From: an uncultured Colwellia sp.
GTDB taxonomy: Bacteria; Pseudomonadota; Gammaproteobacteria; Enterobacterales; Alteromonadaceae
Assembly (NCBI GenBank): GCA_913058145.1
Contig: CAJXQM010000013.1
Span: 6,807 to 70,806 of the forward strand
DNA: 64,000 nt
Direction: 5' to 3'
In this document: positions 44,393 through 50,247 of the stretch, one piece after another
How the letters are laid out: every line of letters begins with the position of its first letter
Numbering within the stretch: the stretch's first letter is position 1
The notes under the pieces: model-generated
Database searches by the model: none
What the model saw: only the letters and a program-made list of their open reading frames with translations
Told to the model about the DNA's origin: nothing
Program-made: the position numbers and the translations under genes

Positions 44393-45433
44393 ATGTCAAT
44401 CCCAGTAAAATCGCCACATTTATCGAACCCTATAGATCACCGCCTTTCTGTAGCTCCAATGCTCGATTGGACTGATCGTCACTGTCGATATTTCTATCGT
44501 GCACTGTCAGTGCATACGGTGCTTTATACAGAAATGGTCACCACGGGCGCTATATTGCACGGTAAAGGAGATTATCTTTCTTATAACAATGCTGAACATC
44601 CGTTAGTTTTACAGTTGGGCGGTAGTGATGTCAAAGCGATGACTGAGTGCGCCAAAATTGCCGAGCAGTATGGCTATGATGAAATTAACATTAACGTTGG
44701 TTGTCCGTCAGATAGGGTACAAAATGGTCGTTTTGGCGCATGTTTGATGGCTGAACCTAGCTTAGTGGCCGATTGTGTTAATGAGATGCAAGCAGCCACT
44801 AAAGTGCCTGTGACAGTAAAATCTCGTATTGGTATTGATGACTTAGATAGTTATGCGTTTTTACACACGTTTATTGAGCAAGTGGCACAAGCGGGTTGTC
44901 AGCATTTTATTATTCATGCACGTAAAGCTTGGCTTAGTGGTTTGAGCCCTAAGCAAAACCGTGATATTCCACCACTTGATTACCCGCGTGTATATCAAAT
45001 AAAACAAGATTTTCCTGCGTTAGCAATATCTATCAATGGCGGTATTAAAACGTTTGCAGAGACTAATAATCACTTACAATACCTTGATGGTGTGATGATA
45101 GGTCGTGAAATCTATAATAGTCCTTATTTATTGGCCGAAGCGGATCAACAAATTTATGGTGTTGAAAAAGAGGTCATTTCTCGACAGCAGGTCATTAATT
45201 TAATGGCTGATTATGTTGATGCTTATGTCAGTTCAACACTTGAACAGGGTAATGCCTACCGTAATCCTCGAGCTTGGCACGTATTACGGCACATGTTAGG
45301 TCTGTGTAATGGTTTAGCGGGTGCGCGTCAATTTCGTCGGTATTTGAGTGAATCGGCCAGAGAAGACGATGCTAATGGTAGTACCTTAAAAGAAGCTTTT
45401 GCTAAAGTGACAGCGCTTAATGAACAAACTTAA
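44393..45433 (+). CDS. dusA: tRNA-dihydrouridine(20/20a) synthase
   Basis: SVAPMLDWTDRHCRYF, NINVGCPSDRVQNGRFGACLM, HARKAWLSGLSPKQNR. Confidence 0.98.
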   Translation: MSIPVKSPHLSNPIDHRLSVAPMLDWTDRHCRYFYRALSVHTVLYTEMVTTGAILHGKGDYLSYNNAEHPLVLQLGGSDVKAMTECAKIAEQYGYDEININVGCPSDRVQNGRFGACLMAEPSLVADCVNEMQAATKVPVTVKSRIGIDDLDSYAFLHTFIEQVAQAGCQHFIIHARKAWLSGLSPKQNRDIPPLDYPRVYQIKQDFPALAISINGGIKTFAETNNHLQYLDGVMIGREIYNSPYLLAEADQQIYGVEKEVISRQQVINLMADYVDAYVSSTLEQGNAYRNPRAWHVLRHMLGLCNGLAGARQFRRYLSESAREDDANGSTLKEAFAKVTALNEQT

Positions 45434-45722
45434 ATAAACAAGATTGGTTTAGGGGATATTTACTGGCTTTTTTGAACAGATTTAAATATTTATATTACGC
45501 AGTTTTTTAATCTGTTCAACAAAAAAGTAAAAACTCAAAAAAGACATCGTTCCGTTTCAATTATACCTCGCCATATTCTTTGTAAGCCCTACAGCTTTTA
45601 AACCTCTACAACTGATTTAACTTTACCCTCTGCTTTTTAAATAATTTGAATATGGTGCTTTTGCGCCATAACAAACATTAAACAGTAGGATCGTTCGATC
45701 ATTATTTTTACTAATTTTATGG

Positions 45723-45762
45723 AGTGGTCAATTTTACGAATGGAGTGGTTAATTTAACTACT
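45723..45762. promoter_or_regulatory. Two tandem enhancer (UAS) sites, PspF-like
   Basis: AGTGGTCAATTTTACGAAT (45723-45741) and near-palindromic AGTGGTTAATTTAACTACT (45744-45762), 21-bp period, about 95 bp upstream of a sigma54 promoter. Confidence 0.65.
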
Positions 45763-45854
45763 TTTTCGTATGGCATATTATGTCTTTTAGCTTGCTGATC
45801 CTTATTGAATTTAATTTTATCTTTATAATCAGTGTTATGAAAAATATTTGGTAG

Positions 45855-45871
45855 TTGGCATAACACTTGTA
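45855..45871 (+). promoter_or_regulatory. Sigma54 (-24/-12) promoter
   Basis: TTGGCA-TAACAC-TTGTA has exact -24/-12 spacing; as recalled, the E. coli pspA promoter also has GT in place of GC at -12. Confidence 0.75.
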
Positions 45872-45958
45872 ATAGTTAAATCATAAAGGATAACAACATA
45901 AATGTTGTTAGTGATTTTAACAAATTGATTCAACCAGTTAATAAGAAGGAATTTTAAA

Positions 45959-46300
45959 ATGAATACTTTAAACCGTACAAATATCAGTGTTGCTTTACTA
46001 CTTACTATCAGTGCCTTTTTTAGTCTTAATACCTATGCAGCCCAAACTACTAACATTGAAAGCTCAATTAGTGAATTAGTAATAGCCCAAGGAAAGCAGA
46101 TGATGAATGAATTAAGCGAGCAATTGCAAAAATCGATCACTGAAGAAATAAATAGTTTCACTATCGACTTTTCTTTTGAGGAATCACTTACTAACTCTTT
46201 AGCTTGGATAAAAGGTGAAGAAAACACATTAACGGGTACCGAAAGTGAAAATAGCAAAGTAGTAAATAAACAATCAAAAATTACCAATAAATCATTGTAA
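45959..46300 (+). CDS. Small exported hypothetical protein, first gene of the psp-like operon
   Basis: 113 aa; signal peptide ending TYA-A; amphipathic helical core; AGGA ribosome-binding site. Confidence 0.8.
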   Translation: MNTLNRTNISVALLLTISAFFSLNTYAAQTTNIESSISELVIAQGKQMMNELSEQLQKSITEEINSFTIDFSFEESLTNSLAWIKGEENTLTGTESENSKVVNKQSKITNKSL

Positions 46301-46384
46301 TACCCGTTTCATTAATCAGGTGATTTTGACAAGTAGATATAATCAGCTAGTTAGTGAGCTTGGTATAAATATAGGAGAGAAGTT

Positions 46385-47059
46385 ATGGGATTATTTACAC
46401 GTTTCACTGATATTGTTAATGCTAATATAAATAGCATGCTTGATAAAGCAGAACAACCCGAGAAAATGATCCGCCTGATCATTCAAGAAATGGAAGAGAC
46501 CTTGGTGGAGGTAAGGGCAACGGCGGCAAAAAATATTGCAGAGCAAAAATCTCATACTCGTCGAGTCAACTCTGCAAAGGAAAACATCAATCATTGGCAT
46601 ACTAGAGCCGAGTTAGCGGTAACTAAAAATAAGGAAGATCTTGCTAAGTCAGCGCTAACACAAAAACATAAATATCAAGGTGAATTAGCATTACTAGAAA
46701 AAGAAAATGAGCAGTTAACTGAATTTTTAACCCAAGTACAAGATGACGCATCGCGTTTACAAGAGAAGTTAGCAGAAGCCAAGCGTCGTCAAGCAGCGAT
46801 TACGCTTCGCAAAGAGTCTGCTCAAGTACGATTAAGGGTACGTAAACAAGCTGCTATTTATAATATTGAAGAAGCGATGAGTAAGTTTGAGCGTTATCAA
46901 CAGAAAGTCGACAGAGTTGAAGCGCAAGTTGAAGCTTATGATCTAATCCAATATACGGAAAAAAATCCGAGTTTATCCGCACAATTCTCAGCATTAGAAA
47001 AAAATGAAACGATAGAGCAAGAATTGGCTGAAATGAAGAAAAACACAGTGGCGGCATAG
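46385..47059 (+). CDS. pspA: Phage shock protein A family
   Basis: MGLFTRFTDIVNANINSMLDKAEQPEKMIRLIIQEMEETLVE; long coiled coil; GGAG ribosome-binding site. Confidence 0.95.
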   Translation: MGLFTRFTDIVNANINSMLDKAEQPEKMIRLIIQEMEETLVEVRATAAKNIAEQKSHTRRVNSAKENINHWHTRAELAVTKNKEDLAKSALTQKHKYQGELALLEKENEQLTEFLTQVQDDASRLQEKLAEAKRRQAAITLRKESAQVRLRVRKQAAIYNIEEAMSKFERYQQKVDRVEAQVEAYDLIQYTEKNPSLSAQFSALEKNETIEQELAEMKKNTVAA

Positions 47060-47099
47060 TTATTATAATATTGTTAATTACATTATAGGTAATTACACA

Positions 47100-47132
47100 A
47101 TGCTAAACAGTCTTGAATGCGCTGTTTAGCAT
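47100..47132. other. Intercistronic stem-loop between pspA and pspC
   Basis: ATGCTAAACAG pairs perfectly with CTGTTTAGCAT; 11-bp stem, 11-nt loop. Confidence 0.75.
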
Positions 47133-47162
47133 CATAGAGTAAAGTGAATACGGAATAAAATC

Positions 47163-47393
47163 ATGAGATATGAACAAGAGTATTCATCAAGTCAAAACGT
47201 TAACAAAAGGTTAGTTAAGGATGGTTTTCATAAAAAATTAACAGGGGTTTGCGCTGGAGTTGCTAAGTATTACGATTATCCGCGAATCGTCGTTAGAGTT
47301 GCTGCTATTGCCGTCTTGATTATGTTACCTGTTGCAACGGGGGTGGCTTATGTTGTGGCTAGTGTGTTACTACCAGAAAATAAATATCAGTAA
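47163..47393 (+). CDS. pspC: Short PspC-domain protein
   Basis: LVKD..HKKLTGVCAGVAKYY PspC signature then one TM segment ending AYVVASVLLP; 76 aa. Confidence 0.88.
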   Translation: MRYEQEYSSSQNVNKRLVKDGFHKKLTGVCAGVAKYYDYPRIVVRVAAIAVLIMLPVATGVAYVVASVLLPENKYQ

Positions 47394-47435
47394 TCAGTAC
47401 AAATCCACCAACCCTAGTTGTTAAGAGAGGAACAG

Positions 47436-47789
47436 ATGACATTTTTCAAATCATTATTGTTAGCCATTAGTGCTACTTTATTTTTAACCTACGCTTTAGG
47501 TGTTAGTTTTTTAGAATTACTCGATATTAATGTTTATATGGATGGTGAATTAATTGAACCTTTAAAAGCGATAGGCGTGTCAGCCGTAGCAACTGTTATT
47601 TTAGTCTTAATTGCCTTAGCAATAGTTTTAAGTGTCTTTGGCTCGTTTATTTTTATTGGCCTACTCATCATGGGCTCGGTAGCGATGGTGGCCATTGGCG
47701 TGTTTTGGCCAGTACTGTTAGCTGCAGTTGCGATTTGGTTGGTGACGCGCAATAAGCCTAGTACCAAAAAAGAAACGCAATACAGTTAG
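47436..47789 (+). CDS. Multi-pass membrane protein, PspG-like C-terminal half
   Basis: GAGG ribosome-binding site before ATG 47436; very hydrophobic; FWPVLLAAVAIWLV followed by a basic tail. Confidence 0.8.
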   Translation: MTFFKSLLLAISATLFLTYALGVSFLELLDINVYMDGELIEPLKAIGVSAVATVILVLIALAIVLSVFGSFIFIGLLIMGSVAMVAIGVFWPVLLAAVAIWLVTRNKPSTKKETQYS

Positions 47790-47903
47790 TGGTAATAATT
47801 AAAGGTGAAATTTTAAGCCCGTCTTTTGGGAGCTCAGTAGTGCTAAATTGAGCAATTTATTATTTCAATTGGTCTTAATCTTTAGTGATATTTGACGTGT
47901 TGC

Positions 47904-48644
47904 TTATTTTTTAAAAAACATCGACATAATATTTTTGCAAGTATCAGTCTTAACTAAACGAGCAAATTCATTACCTTCACTTTCTATTACTTGAGATAAT
48001 GATAATTGTGTCGCTTGACGAATAAGTTTTCTACTGGTCATCACGGCATCACTAGGTAAAGCAGCAATGGTCATAGCCGTTTTTTCCGCTATACTTAATA
48101 ACTCATTAGGTTGGCAAACTTGATTAGCTATGCCATATTCTCTAGCTTGTTCAGCACTAAACGTATCACCTAATATCATTAATTCAAAGGCACGGTTTTG
48201 GCCAATAAGTCTTGTTAATAATAAACTTGAGCCACCTTCAGGACATAACCCTAGCTGAGTGAAAGGTAATTTAAATTTTGTATTGTTGGCAGCAATCACC
48301 ATGTCACAATGTAATAATAACGTGGTGCCAATACCAACAGCAGGTCCAGCAACTGCCGCGACGATGGGTTTGTTAAAGGCATTTAATATTTTTAGAAAAT
48401 CAAGCGCGGCAAGAGAGTCATTTTCTGAGCACTGAATAAAGTCTTGTAAATCATTGCCGGCGCAAAAACAGGTTTCATCACCGTGAATTAATACACAGTG
48501 TATATTATCATTACTTTTAGCGTAGTTAAAATGCTGACCAAGCTGCTTATACATCATATTATTTAACGCATTTTTTTTATCAACACGATTTAAAATAATA
48601 GTAAAAACACCCTGATTTTCTTTCGTTATAATTAAGTCAGTCAT
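47904..48644 (-). CDS. Enoyl-CoA hydratase/isomerase family protein
   Basis: FCAGNDL, KPIVAAVAGPAVGIG, PFTQLGLCPEGGSS. Confidence 0.93.
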   Translation of the reverse strand: MTDLIITKENQGVFTIILNRVDKKNALNNMMYKQLGQHFNYAKSNDNIHCVLIHGDETCFCAGNDLQDFIQCSENDSLAALDFLKILNAFNKPIVAAVAGPAVGIGTTLLLHCDMVIAANNTKFKLPFTQLGLCPEGGSSLLLTRLIGQNRAFELMILGDTFSAEQAREYGIANQVCQPNELLSIAEKTAMTIAALPSDAVMTSRKLIRQATQLSLSQVIESEGNEFARLVKTDTCKNIMSMFFKK

Positions 48645-48709: not shown

Positions 48710-49225
48710 ATGAAAAACAGTTATTTATTATTACTATTTTGTACTTGTTCATTTTTCGGGGTTGCCAATGAAGTATCAACTGAAAAAACGGGATTAGGGC
48801 AAAAATCATTGATTTCAGTTGAGCAGGCTTATATCCGCAGTTCAATACCAGGAACCACTATTACTTCCTCGTATATGATAATAGAAAATAAAGGCGAAAA
48901 AACAGTGACTTTACTGGAAGCTAGCAGTAAAATTTCACCGCGTATTGAAATTCATCAACATAGCATGTCTGATGGTATGATGCGTATGCGTCAGCTAGAC
49001 TCAATTGAGATCAAAGCTAGGCAACGCATTGTTTTGCAGCCATCAGGTTTACATTTAATGTTATTTGATGTTAAAAACCCCCTAAAAGCACAGCAAAATG
49101 TTGAACTTACCCTAAGTTTTTCTCATAATCCATCGGTAACAATTCAGGTGCCTGTTTTTAGCCCTTTGCAGGAAAAAAGAGCACAGGAAGCTGATTCAAC
49201 TGCACAGCCAGCGCATCATCATTAA
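48710..49225 (+). CDS. Periplasmic copper chaperone PCu(A)C
   Basis: Signal peptide; EIHQHSMSDGMMRM..GLHLML metal motif; His-rich tail. Confidence 0.92.
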   Translation: MKNSYLLLLFCTCSFFGVANEVSTEKTGLGQKSLISVEQAYIRSSIPGTTITSSYMIIENKGEKTVTLLEASSKISPRIEIHQHSMSDGMMRMRQLDSIEIKARQRIVLQPSGLHLMLFDVKNPLKAQQNVELTLSFSHNPSVTIQVPVFSPLQEKRAQEADSTAQPAHHH

Positions 49226-49245
49226 GGTATTATTAGGAGTAAAAA

Positions 49246-50247
49246 ATGAAAATGAATTTCTCAGCTAAAACCCTTGGCTTTACAGTGACTGGTATTTTTA
49301 TACTTTTTTATGTTGTTGGTGTTTATTGGAGTTTTAATGTTGAACCTATTGATGTTCAACACGAAATAACTATTGCAGCAACAGCCGATAATGTAGCACC
49401 GGTTGTGGGGTATGCTACTACCACCATGTTAATTAAAGTAGCATCAAGTATTCTAGACAAACCTGGCGGCTATATATCTAATGATGCTCTACCTCCTGGT
49501 GTTATTTTAGACAACATGCCCGCGTGGGAATTTGGTGTGTTACAAATGGTGCGTGATATGGCATTAGTTTTACGTAAAGACTTTAGTCGCTCTCAATCAC
49601 AATCATTAGAAAACAAACACATAACAAAGGCACAACCTAAGTTTAATATTGATAATAAAAGTTGGGCAATGCCAAGTGCTGAATCTGAGTATAGAAAAGC
49701 TATTGATAGTTTGTACAGCTACAGAAATGCATTAGTCGGTATTAGTACGGCTAAAAATGATACCGCACAGTTTTATGCCCGTGCTGATAATTTAACGTCA
49801 TATTTTGATGAAGTACAAAAACGTTTGGGAAGTTATTCACAACGCTTAAGTGCAAGTGTTGGTACAGATAAGATAAATACTGACTTAGCCGGTGATAGCG
49901 AGGCTAAACAATCTTCTTCTGAAGCGTCTCATGCACAGTTAAGAACCAGTTGGTGGAAACTTGATGATGTTTTTCATGAATCACGTGGCGCAGCATGGGC
50001 CTTATTATACTTCTTAAAAGCTATTGAAATTGATTTTGATAGTGTCTTAGAAAAGAAAAATGCGAAGATCAGCTTACAACAAATAATTCGTGAATTAGAA
50101 TCCAGCCAGCAAACATTATGGAGTCCTATGGTTCTAAATGGCGATGGTTTTGGTGTGTTAGCTAATCACTCTTTAGTTATGGCTAATTACATTTCACGCG
50201 CCAATGCCGCATTAATTGATTTAAATGAACTACTAAGAAAAGGGTAA
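49246..50247 (+). CDS. DUF2333 family protein
   Basis: N-terminal anchor; KPGGYISND, LDNMPAWEFG, FSRSQSQS, ANHSLVMANYISRANAA. Confidence 0.85.
   Translation: MKMNFSAKTLGFTVTGIFILFYVVGVYWSFNVEPIDVQHEITIAATADNVAPVVGYATTTMLIKVASSILDKPGGYISNDALPPGVILDNMPAWEFGVLQMVRDMALVLRKDFSRSQSQSLENKHITKAQPKFNIDNKSWAMPSAESEYRKAIDSLYSYRNALVGISTAKNDTAQFYARADNLTSYFDEVQKRLGSYSQRLSASVGTDKINTDLAGDSEAKQSSSEASHAQLRTSWWKLDDVFHESRGAAWALLYFLKAIEIDFDSVLEKKNAKISLQQIIRELESSQQTLWSPMVLNGDGFGVLANHSLVMANYISRANAALIDLNELLRKG

Follow-up and report, generated by a model that had tools for sequence, protein, structure and literature searches.

A putative second phage-shock operon, with an exported protein and an extended PspG-type membrane protein, downstream of dusA in an uncultured Colwellia

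PspG has been placed in the E. coli phage-shock regulon since 2004, and we know of no clear function for it. Its gene stands alone after dusA in E. coli, and the question raised here is what a four-gene unit is doing at the same site in an uncultured Colwellia sp. We analyzed a 64,000-nucleotide stretch of this genome (contig CAJXQM010000013.1; hereafter, the window), for which an initial annotation had described a second membrane-stress or repair module at the pspG site. Overall, our analysis points to a second phage-shock operon (psp2), to which we assign a probability of about 70%: an effector operon read from a sigma-54 promoter that would need an enhancer-binding protein, most likely the single, distantly encoded PspF, and that would receive a second regulatory input. 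The gene identities, paralogy, synteny, age of the duplication, conserved cis elements and profile relation to PspG behind this reading were computed here; from them we infer PspF dependence, protein contacts, a role for an intergenic hairpin and a regulator for a conserved palindrome.

The locus is marked by dusA, the tRNA dihydrouridine synthase A gene (44393-45433, + strand; 506 bits to NF008774, with a PF01207 match), a conserved left neighbor that lies directly upstream of the module and outside the psp2 operon. It precedes the module in most related loci and pspG in E. coli, where the order zur..dusA-pspG cited by the initial annotation is confirmed by NC_000913, which reads zur..dusA-pspG(-pspH small RNA (sRNA))-qorA. 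The annotation had also described four co-oriented genes behind a sigma-54 promoter, and we found both the promoter element and all four open reading frames (ORFs) on the + strand. The first, p113 (45959-46300), encodes an exported 113-residue protein with a signal peptide and no Pfam or NCBIfam match. The second, pspA2 (46385-47059), encodes a 224-residue paralog of the ESCRT-III-like PspA/IM30 proteins (TIGR02977, PF04012), and the third, pspC' (47163-47393), a 76-residue protein consisting of a PspC domain only (PF04024). The fourth (47436-47789) encodes a 117-residue multi-transmembrane (TM) protein that matches PspG by profile and occupies the PspG slot; it had been listed from a TTG at 47418, and its orthologs and a ribosome-binding site place the start at ATG 47436. 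Gaps of 84, 103 and 42 bp separate the four genes, and the unit contains neither pspB nor pspF.

We searched the genome assembly (3.0 Mb, 68 contigs, 97% complete) in six frames and found three PspA/IM30 genes and two PspC-domain genes. Contig C3 carries a separate canonical system, with pspF divergent from pspA-pspB-pspC and ycjX-ycjF following, in which each psp gene scores over its NCBIfam cut-off; the copies of pspB and pspF that are missing from the unit in the window are found there. Contig C5 carries the third PspA_IM30 gene, of the YjfJ type. The proposal of a second PspA paralog is upheld by these counts, since the gene in the window is not the only pspA, and the picture of just two PspA genes is not. 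With pspA2, the short pspC and the PspG-type gene side by side in one orientation, and a canonical pspFABC elsewhere, the locus has the arrangement that defines a pspACG second operon.

PspA2 scores 258.6 bits against the PspA equivalog model TIGR02977 (cut-off 242.95), covering profile positions 1-216 of 219, and 142 bits against PF04012 PspA_IM30 (cut-off 33.9). It is 45% identical to the canonical PspA of the same genome. Across residues 1-45, which hold both amphipathic helices, it is 71% identical to E. coli PspA and 76% identical to its own genome's canonical PspA, with Pro25 kept. In E. coli PspA, helix a serves membrane binding and helix b contacts PspF, with Pro25 as the hinge between them. 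By sequence, PspA2 is thus predicted to retain the N-terminal features of the PspF-regulating PspA class.

The PspC-domain protein is reduced. It scores 50.4 bits against PF04024 (cut-off 25), identifying the domain itself, and 44.4 bits against the full-length equivalog model TIGR02978 (cut-off 104), of which it covers only positions 2-60 of 121. The protein comprises a cytoplasmic N-terminus and one TM segment and ends right after that segment, with the C-terminal leucine-zipper half absent; in every second module examined, the short PspC is 66-80 residues long. In E. coli PspC, the TM segment (residues 40-68) is sufficient for binding PspG and PspB, and the leucine-zipper part (residues 69-119) is required for PspA binding and induction (PMC3068692). 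The psp2 PspC keeps the part equivalent to residues 40-68 and lacks the part equivalent to 69-119. The description of a second psp module at the pspG site, with its own PspA paralog, an exported component and a PspC without the half that signals with PspB and PspA, is borne out by these genes.

The identity of the fourth protein took more than a direct model match. It has an extra N-terminal TM segment, a conserved acidic periplasmic loop (...D.NVYMDGELIEPLKA...), a PspG-like hydrophobic core that ends FWPvLL..WL and a basic tail. Pfam and NCBIfam gave it only chance matches below threshold, and its homologs are all named "hypothetical", a few evidently wrong JGI (Joint Genome Institute) names aside. 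The Pfam PspG model PF09583 gave no match to it at E<=0.1 and nothing at the locus in a six-frame search of the genome, and a hidden Markov model (HMM) built from 19 bona fide PspGs placed the 117-residue family at E>=2.9, inside the genome background. These failures count against a relation to PspG, as does the proneness of hydrophobic sequences to similarity by compositional artifact, and we rejected direct Pfam-level membership. At the level of profiles, hhalign matched a 37-member family profile to the 19-PspG profile at 95.0% (E 3.7e-8) over 37 columns, or 67 under relaxed settings. The match spans the last TM helix and the basic tail (FWPvLL..WL.. against LLPWLL..W..), and in relaxed form PspG residues 9-80. 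In the reciprocal search, the membrane-protein HMM ranked eight true PspGs (E 1e-5 to 0.05) above all 4640 ORFs of the genome.

Position points the same way. Bona fide PspG (PF09583 over cut-off) occurs in 23 of 151 evenly sampled genomes of the same GTDB order and in none of those from the window's family. It is found in three arrangements: immediately behind dusA (E. coli and Vibrio-like genomes), flanked by pspA2-pspC' on the left and by PCu(A)C copper chaperone (PCuAC) and DUF2333 genes on the right (families f28 and f26), or preceding PCuAC-DUF2333 alone. The slot so defined, after dusA or pspA2-pspC' and before PCuAC/DUF2333, is held in family f1 by the 117-residue protein. A single-copy relative of it is present in 39/61 genomes of the window's family (38 of 59 genera), and the extended form is typical of the whole family, beyond Colwellia. 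Because of the profile-to-profile match and the PspG position, we consider the protein very likely to be a PspG homolog with an added N-terminal helix and acidic periplasmic loop. The earlier label of a "PspG-like" anchor accordingly stands at the profile-profile level and falls at the level of the Pfam PspG model.

We assessed the conservation of cis elements in an alignment of 26 orthologous Colwelliaceae upstream regions. A sigma-54 promoter, TTGGCATAACACTTGTAATAG (45855-45875, + strand), with -24 GG and -12 TG, is kept in 26/26 loci. Its element TTGGCATAACACTTGTA begins at 45855, 104 bp before the p113 start, a placement that fits a promoter for the unit, and is one of 16 TGGCAY-N5-TTGYW matches in the genome. 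Two candidate PspF-type activator sites lie upstream on the + strand: site A, TGGTCAATTTTAC (45725-45737; written TGGTCAATTTGAC in the aligned footprint), recurs with <=2 mismatches in all 26 promoters, and site B, GTGGTTAATTTAACTA (45745-45760), which is related in sequence to site A and lies about two helical turns from it, in 25. Site A resembles the canonical pspA-promoter site TAGTTAAATTCACTAA of its own genome and family, and site B matches the canonical AGTTAAATTCACTA at 11/14 positions; both resemble the family's canonical pspA element T(A/G)GT(C/T)AAATTT(C/G)ACTAA and the E. coli sites at pspG (TAGTCAAATTCACCA) and pspA (TAGTGTAATTCGCTAA). An integration host factor (IHF)-like site, AATCAGTGTTATG (45827-45839, + strand), one mismatch from WATCARNNNNTTR, completes the layout; it stands at -29 from TGGCA in 20/26 promoters, eight of them with an exact match.

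Among the eight sigma-54 activators of the genome, PspF is the only one of the PspF class, PspF is present in 39/39 family genomes with psp2, and the one complete genome of the same genus that lacks PspF has neither PspA nor psp2. Two observations weigh against PspF control. PspF is also present in 58/61 family genomes overall, and because it is nearly universal in the family, its co-occurrence with psp2 says little. The degenerate PspF-site motif, in turn, occurs 24 times in this AT-rich genome where ~10 are expected, and since the enrichment is only ~2.5-fold, another of the seven remaining sigma-54 activators could serve instead.

A further element, a 13-bp strand-neutral palindrome, GGCATATTATGTC (45772-45784; family consensus GACATAWTATGTC), lies between the activator sites and the IHF-like site. 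Its footprint form, GACATATTATGTC, is present in 25/26 orthologous promoters, and the copy in the window differs from it by one mismatch. Exact copies in the same genome occur only at the YjfI/YjfJ cluster on contig C5 (C5:100223, 100259 and 104282, equivalent to L007 6224, 6260 and 10283), two of them 36 bp apart just upstream of yjfI and the third at the head of the cluster. One-mismatch copies, of which ~4 would be expected by chance, lie at C11:17493 and C22:45547. The former is positioned between an Lrp/AsnC-type regulator gene and an Mrp-type antiporter gene, and we accepted it only because exact copies in other genomes lie between orthologous regulator and Na+/H+ antiporter genes; the C22 copy is uncertain.

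Across the family, 32/61 genomes carry 2-12 exact copies of the palindrome, against a single match in total for a reversed control sequence, and most of these 32 also have the three copies at the yjf cluster. At least 14 genomes have a copy 1.3-2 kb ahead of the PspG-type gene, a distance that puts it in the psp2 promoter. The genes downstream of 52 other sampled sites encode NhaA (in eight genomes, divergent from an Lrp/AsnC-type regulator gene), SPFH/Band 7 proteins with NfeD, a YqiJ-like membrane protein, HtpX and a small YidC. A literature search for the palindrome sequence returned nothing relevant. Operators of the form abcdeWWWe'd'c'b'a' have been described for Lrp/AsnC-family proteins, and because the palindrome fits this form, it offers a lead, and only a lead, to a membrane-maintenance regulon under the Lrp/AsnC-type regulator whose gene adjoins the antiporter-associated copies, with psp2 under dual control.

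Could this second regulator replace PspF altogether? The palindrome is as strictly conserved as the PspF-like sites, and it ties psp2 to YjfI/YjfJ and, in relatives, to NhaA, SPFH/NfeD, HtpX and small YidC. On such grounds psp2 might be independent of PspF, belonging to a separate membrane-homeostasis regulon run by the palindrome's regulator, by another sigma-54 activator, or by both, and the weakly specific PspF-site motif leaves room for the seven other activators. We judge this unlikely for several reasons. A sigma-54 promoter requires an AAA+ activator, which Lrp/AsnC-type proteins are not, and the other members of the candidate regulon were seen without a sigma-54 element, with the yjfI promoter resembling a sigma-70 promoter. 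The upstream sites, moreover, resemble both the canonical pspA sites of the same genomes and the PspF targets of E. coli, where the orthologous pspG locus at dusA is a proven, PspF-dependent target (PMC3041696). We therefore retain PspF as the most likely activator of psp2, with the palindrome as an additional input.

We next consider how old the unit is. A scan of one genome per species yielded 47 loci from Colwellia, Litorilituus, Thalassotalea and relatives, and more than 20 of them share the order dusA-p113-pspA2-pspC'-membrane protein-(enoyl-CoA hydratase)-PCuAC-DUF2333, so that the four genes are co-conserved across the three named genera, as a check on the initial annotation required. 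In 20 further loci from the window's family, the pspA2-pspC'-membrane protein core is present in 16-18. Within the even sample of 151 genomes, 88 encode PspA and 22 encode two close copies. We inspected 20 of these 22, representing seven families, and all 20 carry the divergent pspF and pspABC together with a unit of the form (dusA)-pspA2-short pspC-small membrane protein-(PCuAC)-DUF2333.

In a maximum-likelihood tree of 78 PspAs, with the YjfJ-type protein as outgroup, 41 of 42 canonical proteins form one clade (Shimodaira-Hasegawa-like approximate likelihood-ratio test (SH-aLRT) 98) and all second-module PspAs fall outside it. PspA2 lies with the latter, outside the 41 rows of the canonical clade, and is in this sense not a canonical ortholog. 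The label canonical or second changes twice on the tree, compared to ~25 times for shuffled labels, and the tree broadly follows family groupings. Since second-module PspAs from different families lie outside the canonical clade, the duplication predates the divergence of the families; the PspA duplication is thus old, with psp2 ancestral to these families. The module was inherited and not assembled in Colwellia, and the single pspG of E. coli represents a reduced state: E. coli and Vibrio-like genomes, which keep only pspG after dusA, hold a remnant of the old unit. The earlier suggestion that "this lineage has built" the system does not survive the presence of the same unit in at least seven families and the placement of PspA2 outside the canonical clade.

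The dusA gene is a known target for integrating elements, which insert at its 5' end, and the module could in principle be a horizontally acquired island at this hot spot. It lies 3' of dusA rather than 5', and the G+C content of pspA2, pspC' and the membrane-protein gene (0.376-0.387) equals the window mean (0.382). The same flanks, dusA on one side and PCuAC-DUF2333 on the other, recur in many genera and families, and the PspA tree broadly follows families as described above. On composition and synteny we rejected horizontal acquisition, which we regard as scarcely credible.

A more serious challenge to psp2 as a functional operon is its loss in individual genomes. One complete genome of the same genus (G059, 2 contigs) lacks psp2, and in the nearest metagenome-assembled genome (MAG), Colwellia sp. 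UBA8680, both p113 and pspA2 are disrupted; these two cases speak against the reading of psp2 proposed here, and they show that the module is dispensable in nature. In G059 we found no PspF over cut-off, no PspG-type protein and no PspA at E<=1e-10, a threshold that its YjfJ-type paralog does not reach. This genome seems to have lost its two psp systems jointly; it retains three palindromes with the spacing seen at the yjf cluster, as well as the AsnC-nhaA site. In UBA8680 (locus L050 3197-3620), p113 contains a premature TAG, and two clean deletions take away the 3' half of p113, codons 1-105 of pspA2 and the 3' end of pspA2. The pspC' and PspG-type genes of this MAG are intact, at 89-97% identity. 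The disruption is either real decay or an artifact of MAG assembly. The module is evolutionarily labile at its edges, because the lesions hit p113 and pspA2 and leave pspC' and the membrane-protein gene whole.

These losses could mean that psp2 is a redundant, slowly decaying duplicate without a distinct function, and that p113 is a hitch-hiking ORF. The absence of psp2 from G059, the stop codon and two deletions in the nearest MAG, the lack of a p113 gene in another Colwellia MAG (L012), the fast evolution of p113 (33-79% identity, compared to 57-90% for the membrane protein, across related loci) and the reduction of the unit to pspG in enterics would all fit such decay. We nevertheless consider it improbable, even more so than independence from PspF. 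The two PspA paralogs split before the families diverged, and in seven families the two still coexist, their reading frames intact and their cis elements conserved. The p113 family, for its part, occurs only at this position, in two families and in distant metagenomic members, with its signal peptide, helix and invariant residues conserved. A maintained psp2 operon remains the reading that we favor.

The exported protein is the least familiar component of psp2. p113 consists of a signal peptide, one long amphipathic helix at about residues 30-67, and a disordered polar tail; AlphaFold2 run with 25 sequences modeled the signal helix, the 30-67 helix at a predicted local distance difference test (pLDDT) score of 72-86, and the tail below 50, with a mean pLDDT of 62. 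Comparison with Pfam and NCBIfam gave only sub-threshold chance matches, and its homologs are unnamed except for some evidently wrong Joint Genome Institute (JGI) names. A profile search of 1.84 billion representative proteins retrieved 123 clusters, nearly all of 90-120 residues. Three distant members stand in the order Dus-(rhodanese)-p~100-PspA-(29- to 42-residue ORF)-PspC (71-80 residues)-~113-residue protein, and in family f19 and Psychrosphaera the second module likewise begins with a p113-like protein. Common to all are the signal peptide, a ~40-residue helix with a Q...SI... pattern and the polar tail, and the family was found only directly upstream of a second-module pspA. Because the gene is missing from L012, where the promoter directly precedes pspA2, and from Aeromonas-like modules, p113 is best seen, on present genomic comparison, as an accessory, lineage-restricted component.

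Other small genes vary around the same positions. The dusA-p113 spacer measures 525 bp in the window and ~940 bp in relatives. A two-domain rhodanese gene (281-290 residues, PF00581) lies between dusA and p113 in Colwellia chukchiensis (L029 4496-5341) and in a metagenomic locus (L212 1783-2655), echoing PspE, the rhodanese of the E. coli psp operon. In most second psp modules we also observed a micro-ORF of 29-45 codons, encoding a single TM segment or helix with the motif L..LAP.V.., located in the pspA2-pspC' spacer or, among Colwellia relatives, upstream with a dedicated sigma-54 promoter TGGCACAACCTTTGTA (L009 4981-5151, L020 4933-5115, L026 4864-4995, L029 4179-4298, L079 5172-5288, L085 5184-5294, L091 5166-5264, L213 1048-1176 and L215 2886-2975). 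Its product, a TM segment and nothing more, may substitute for PspB. Neither the micro-ORF nor its promoter is left in the window, whose pspA2-pspC' spacer holds a hairpin only. At one locus from an uncultured gammaproteobacterium (L036 5487-5711), a tandem repeat that would read as (K/N)LQITNY heptads if translated separates the micro-ORF from pspA2 and probably has no coding role.

The hairpin between pspA2 and pspC' (47100-47132, + strand), reported as an 11-bp hairpin by the initial annotation, has 11-bp arms (47100-47110/47122-47132) and an 11-nucleotide loop. Its folding energy is -15.3 kcal/mol (z -3.3), a value reached by 1/200 shuffled sequences. About half of the Colwellia orthologs have a hairpin here too, with stems that differ in sequence, and most of these hairpins are followed by CATAA or CACAA. 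We rejected an intrinsic terminator because no T-run follows the stem, and the hairpin is not a repetitive extragenic palindromic (REP) or other repeat element, since it is unique in the genome. Searching 45300-48000, which includes the hairpin and the 3' end of the unit, against Rfam identified no RNA family and no counterpart of the E. coli pspH sRNA, which is annotated as PspH in the pspG 3' region of E. coli K-12 (L078 4140-4250).

A weak terminator-like stem-loop follows the last gene (47832-47853, + strand), with a 7-bp stem and then AATTTATTAT. It faces a convergent enoyl-CoA hydratase gene located 3' of the module (47904-48644, - strand). As terminator-like sites are not more numerous than in shuffles, we assign the operon end to this position with low confidence. 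Beyond the hydratase gene lie the PCu(A)C (PF04314) and DUF2333 genes (48710-50247), conserved right neighbors that flank the module or pspG across the order, with the hydratase gene intervening here.

The YjfI/YjfJ cluster that shares the palindrome occupies L007 3898-10122 on contig C5. It encodes an unknown 345-residue protein, a DUF350 protein, a spermine-synthase-like membrane protein, a DUF2170 protein (YjfI), the PspA_IM30 protein (YjfJ), a DUF4178-like protein and a 121-residue protein. By eye, this last protein resembles a tandem ribbon-helix-helix protein, and it has no Pfam match.

Taken together, these elements suggest how psp2 could work. Damage to the inner membrane would free PspF from inhibition by PspA, and PspF bound at the two upstream sites, with IHF-assisted looping, would fire both the canonical operon and psp2, whose transcript would start just downstream of TTGTAATAG. 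PspA2 would act as a second ESCRT-III-like PspA that keeps the membrane- and PspF-binding N-terminal helices. The short PspC and the PspG homolog would be its two small membrane partners, forming a membrane complex to which PspA2 may be recruited or beside which it may act, and the system would operate without signaling of the PspB/PspC type. On the periplasmic face, p113 could act on, or report from, that side of the membrane. The stem-loop downstream of pspA2 probably either stabilizes the pspA2 transcript or limits read-through, giving PspA2 in excess over its membrane partners, and the palindrome would bring in a second input common to other membrane-maintenance genes.

This scheme extends to a broader proposal, which is tentative and which we hold possible rather than probable. 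In it, psp2 is one arm of an undescribed inner-membrane-maintenance regulon of Colwellia-like Alteromonadaceae, with GACATAWTATGTC as operator and, as probable regulator, the Lrp/AsnC-type protein whose gene neighbors one of the sites, that joins YjfI/YjfJ, SPFH/NfeD, HtpX, small YidC and Na+/H+ antiporters; PspG-type proteins and the short PspC together serve as the PspA2 receptor, and p113 as a periplasmic partner. If true, PspG would be given a defined job and the orphan pspG of E. coli would be explained as a relic, and the palindrome would offer a useful way to study how cold-adapted marine bacteria maintain membrane quality.

With or without that regulon, the setting in which PspG naturally occurs in many marine gammaproteobacteria appears to be an operon that also encodes a PspA of its own and a shortened PspC; this setting is ancestral and not peculiar to Aeromonas. 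A testable model follows in which PspG and the TM part of PspC form a docking unit for a dedicated ESCRT-III-like PspA. p113 and the periplasmic loop of the PspG-type protein suggest coupling to events on the periplasmic side, which canonical Psp senses only indirectly. Two unannotated protein families are added to the Psp repertoire and a candidate regulon is exposed, with nothing overturned.

How does psp2 compare with known systems? Like the canonical pspF-pspABC(-ycjXF) system, it has a PspA with N-terminal amphipathic helices, a PspC-domain partner and a sigma-54 promoter with similar upstream sites. It differs from that system in having no adjacent pspF, no PspB and no leucine-zipper half of PspC, and its PspA, with the 45% identity given above, is phylogenetically separate. 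The YjfI-YjfJ cluster is likewise a PspA/IM30 paralog system in the same genome and shares the GACATAWTATGTC operator with psp2, but it has other partner proteins, no sigma-54 promoter or PspF-type site that we could see, and a far more divergent PspA. The LiaI-LiaH pair of Bacillus parallels the logic of psp2, in that a PspA-family effector is produced together with a small multi-TM protein as its possible membrane anchor. There, however, the LiaRS two-component system is in control, LiaI has no relation to PspG, and neither a PspC domain nor an exported component is present; PspA2 scores 52.7 bits against the LiaH model (cut-off 380).

The orphan pspG of E. coli is closer. It holds the same position after dusA and has a sigma-54 promoter (TGGCATGATTCTTGTA) with TTGT at -12, the upstream site TAGTCAAATTCACCA and an IHF-type box (ATCAATAGATTA), and its protein is related to the 117-residue protein at the profile level. 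In contrast to psp2, it stands alone, with no pspA2, short pspC or exported protein, and it encodes 80 residues without the N-terminal extension.

The closest counterpart is found in Aeromonas. A "reduced psp operon, pspACG" was pointed out there by Jovanovic et al. 2010 (PMC3068692), in silico only, and Huvet et al. 2011 described a pspG ortholog adjoining paralogs of pspA and pspC in A. salmonicida A449 and proposed that pspG entered the Psp response via such an operon (PMC3041696). These two papers and two later phylum-wide surveys (PMC9239133, PMC11237479) give no distribution map or characterization of the unit, and PMC11237479 never mentions PspG. Our literature search found no experimental work on a pspACG unit; the initial statement that no characterization was known thus holds for experiments, and it misses that the core unit had already been noted in Aeromonas. 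As far as can be told, the wide distribution and ancient origin, the exported protein, the extended PspG and the promoter architecture are new.

The likeness to Aeromonas pspACG is detailed: a PspA paralog, a short PspC and a PspG-type protein are tightly clustered, with a canonical pspFABC elsewhere. Aeromonas-like genomes (family f28, genus g44) contain exactly the pspA-pspC-pspG unit, with a nearly identical promoter core (TGGCACGGCACTTGTA) 61 bp before pspA2. Compared to that unit, the one in the window adds p113, the N-terminal TM segment and periplasmic loop of PspG, and the 13-bp palindrome, and its PspG-type protein fails the Pfam PspG model. Judged from these genomic comparisons, the unit in the window is best described as one lineage's variant of an old, widespread and uncharacterized second phage-shock operon, distinguished by its exported protein and extended PspG.

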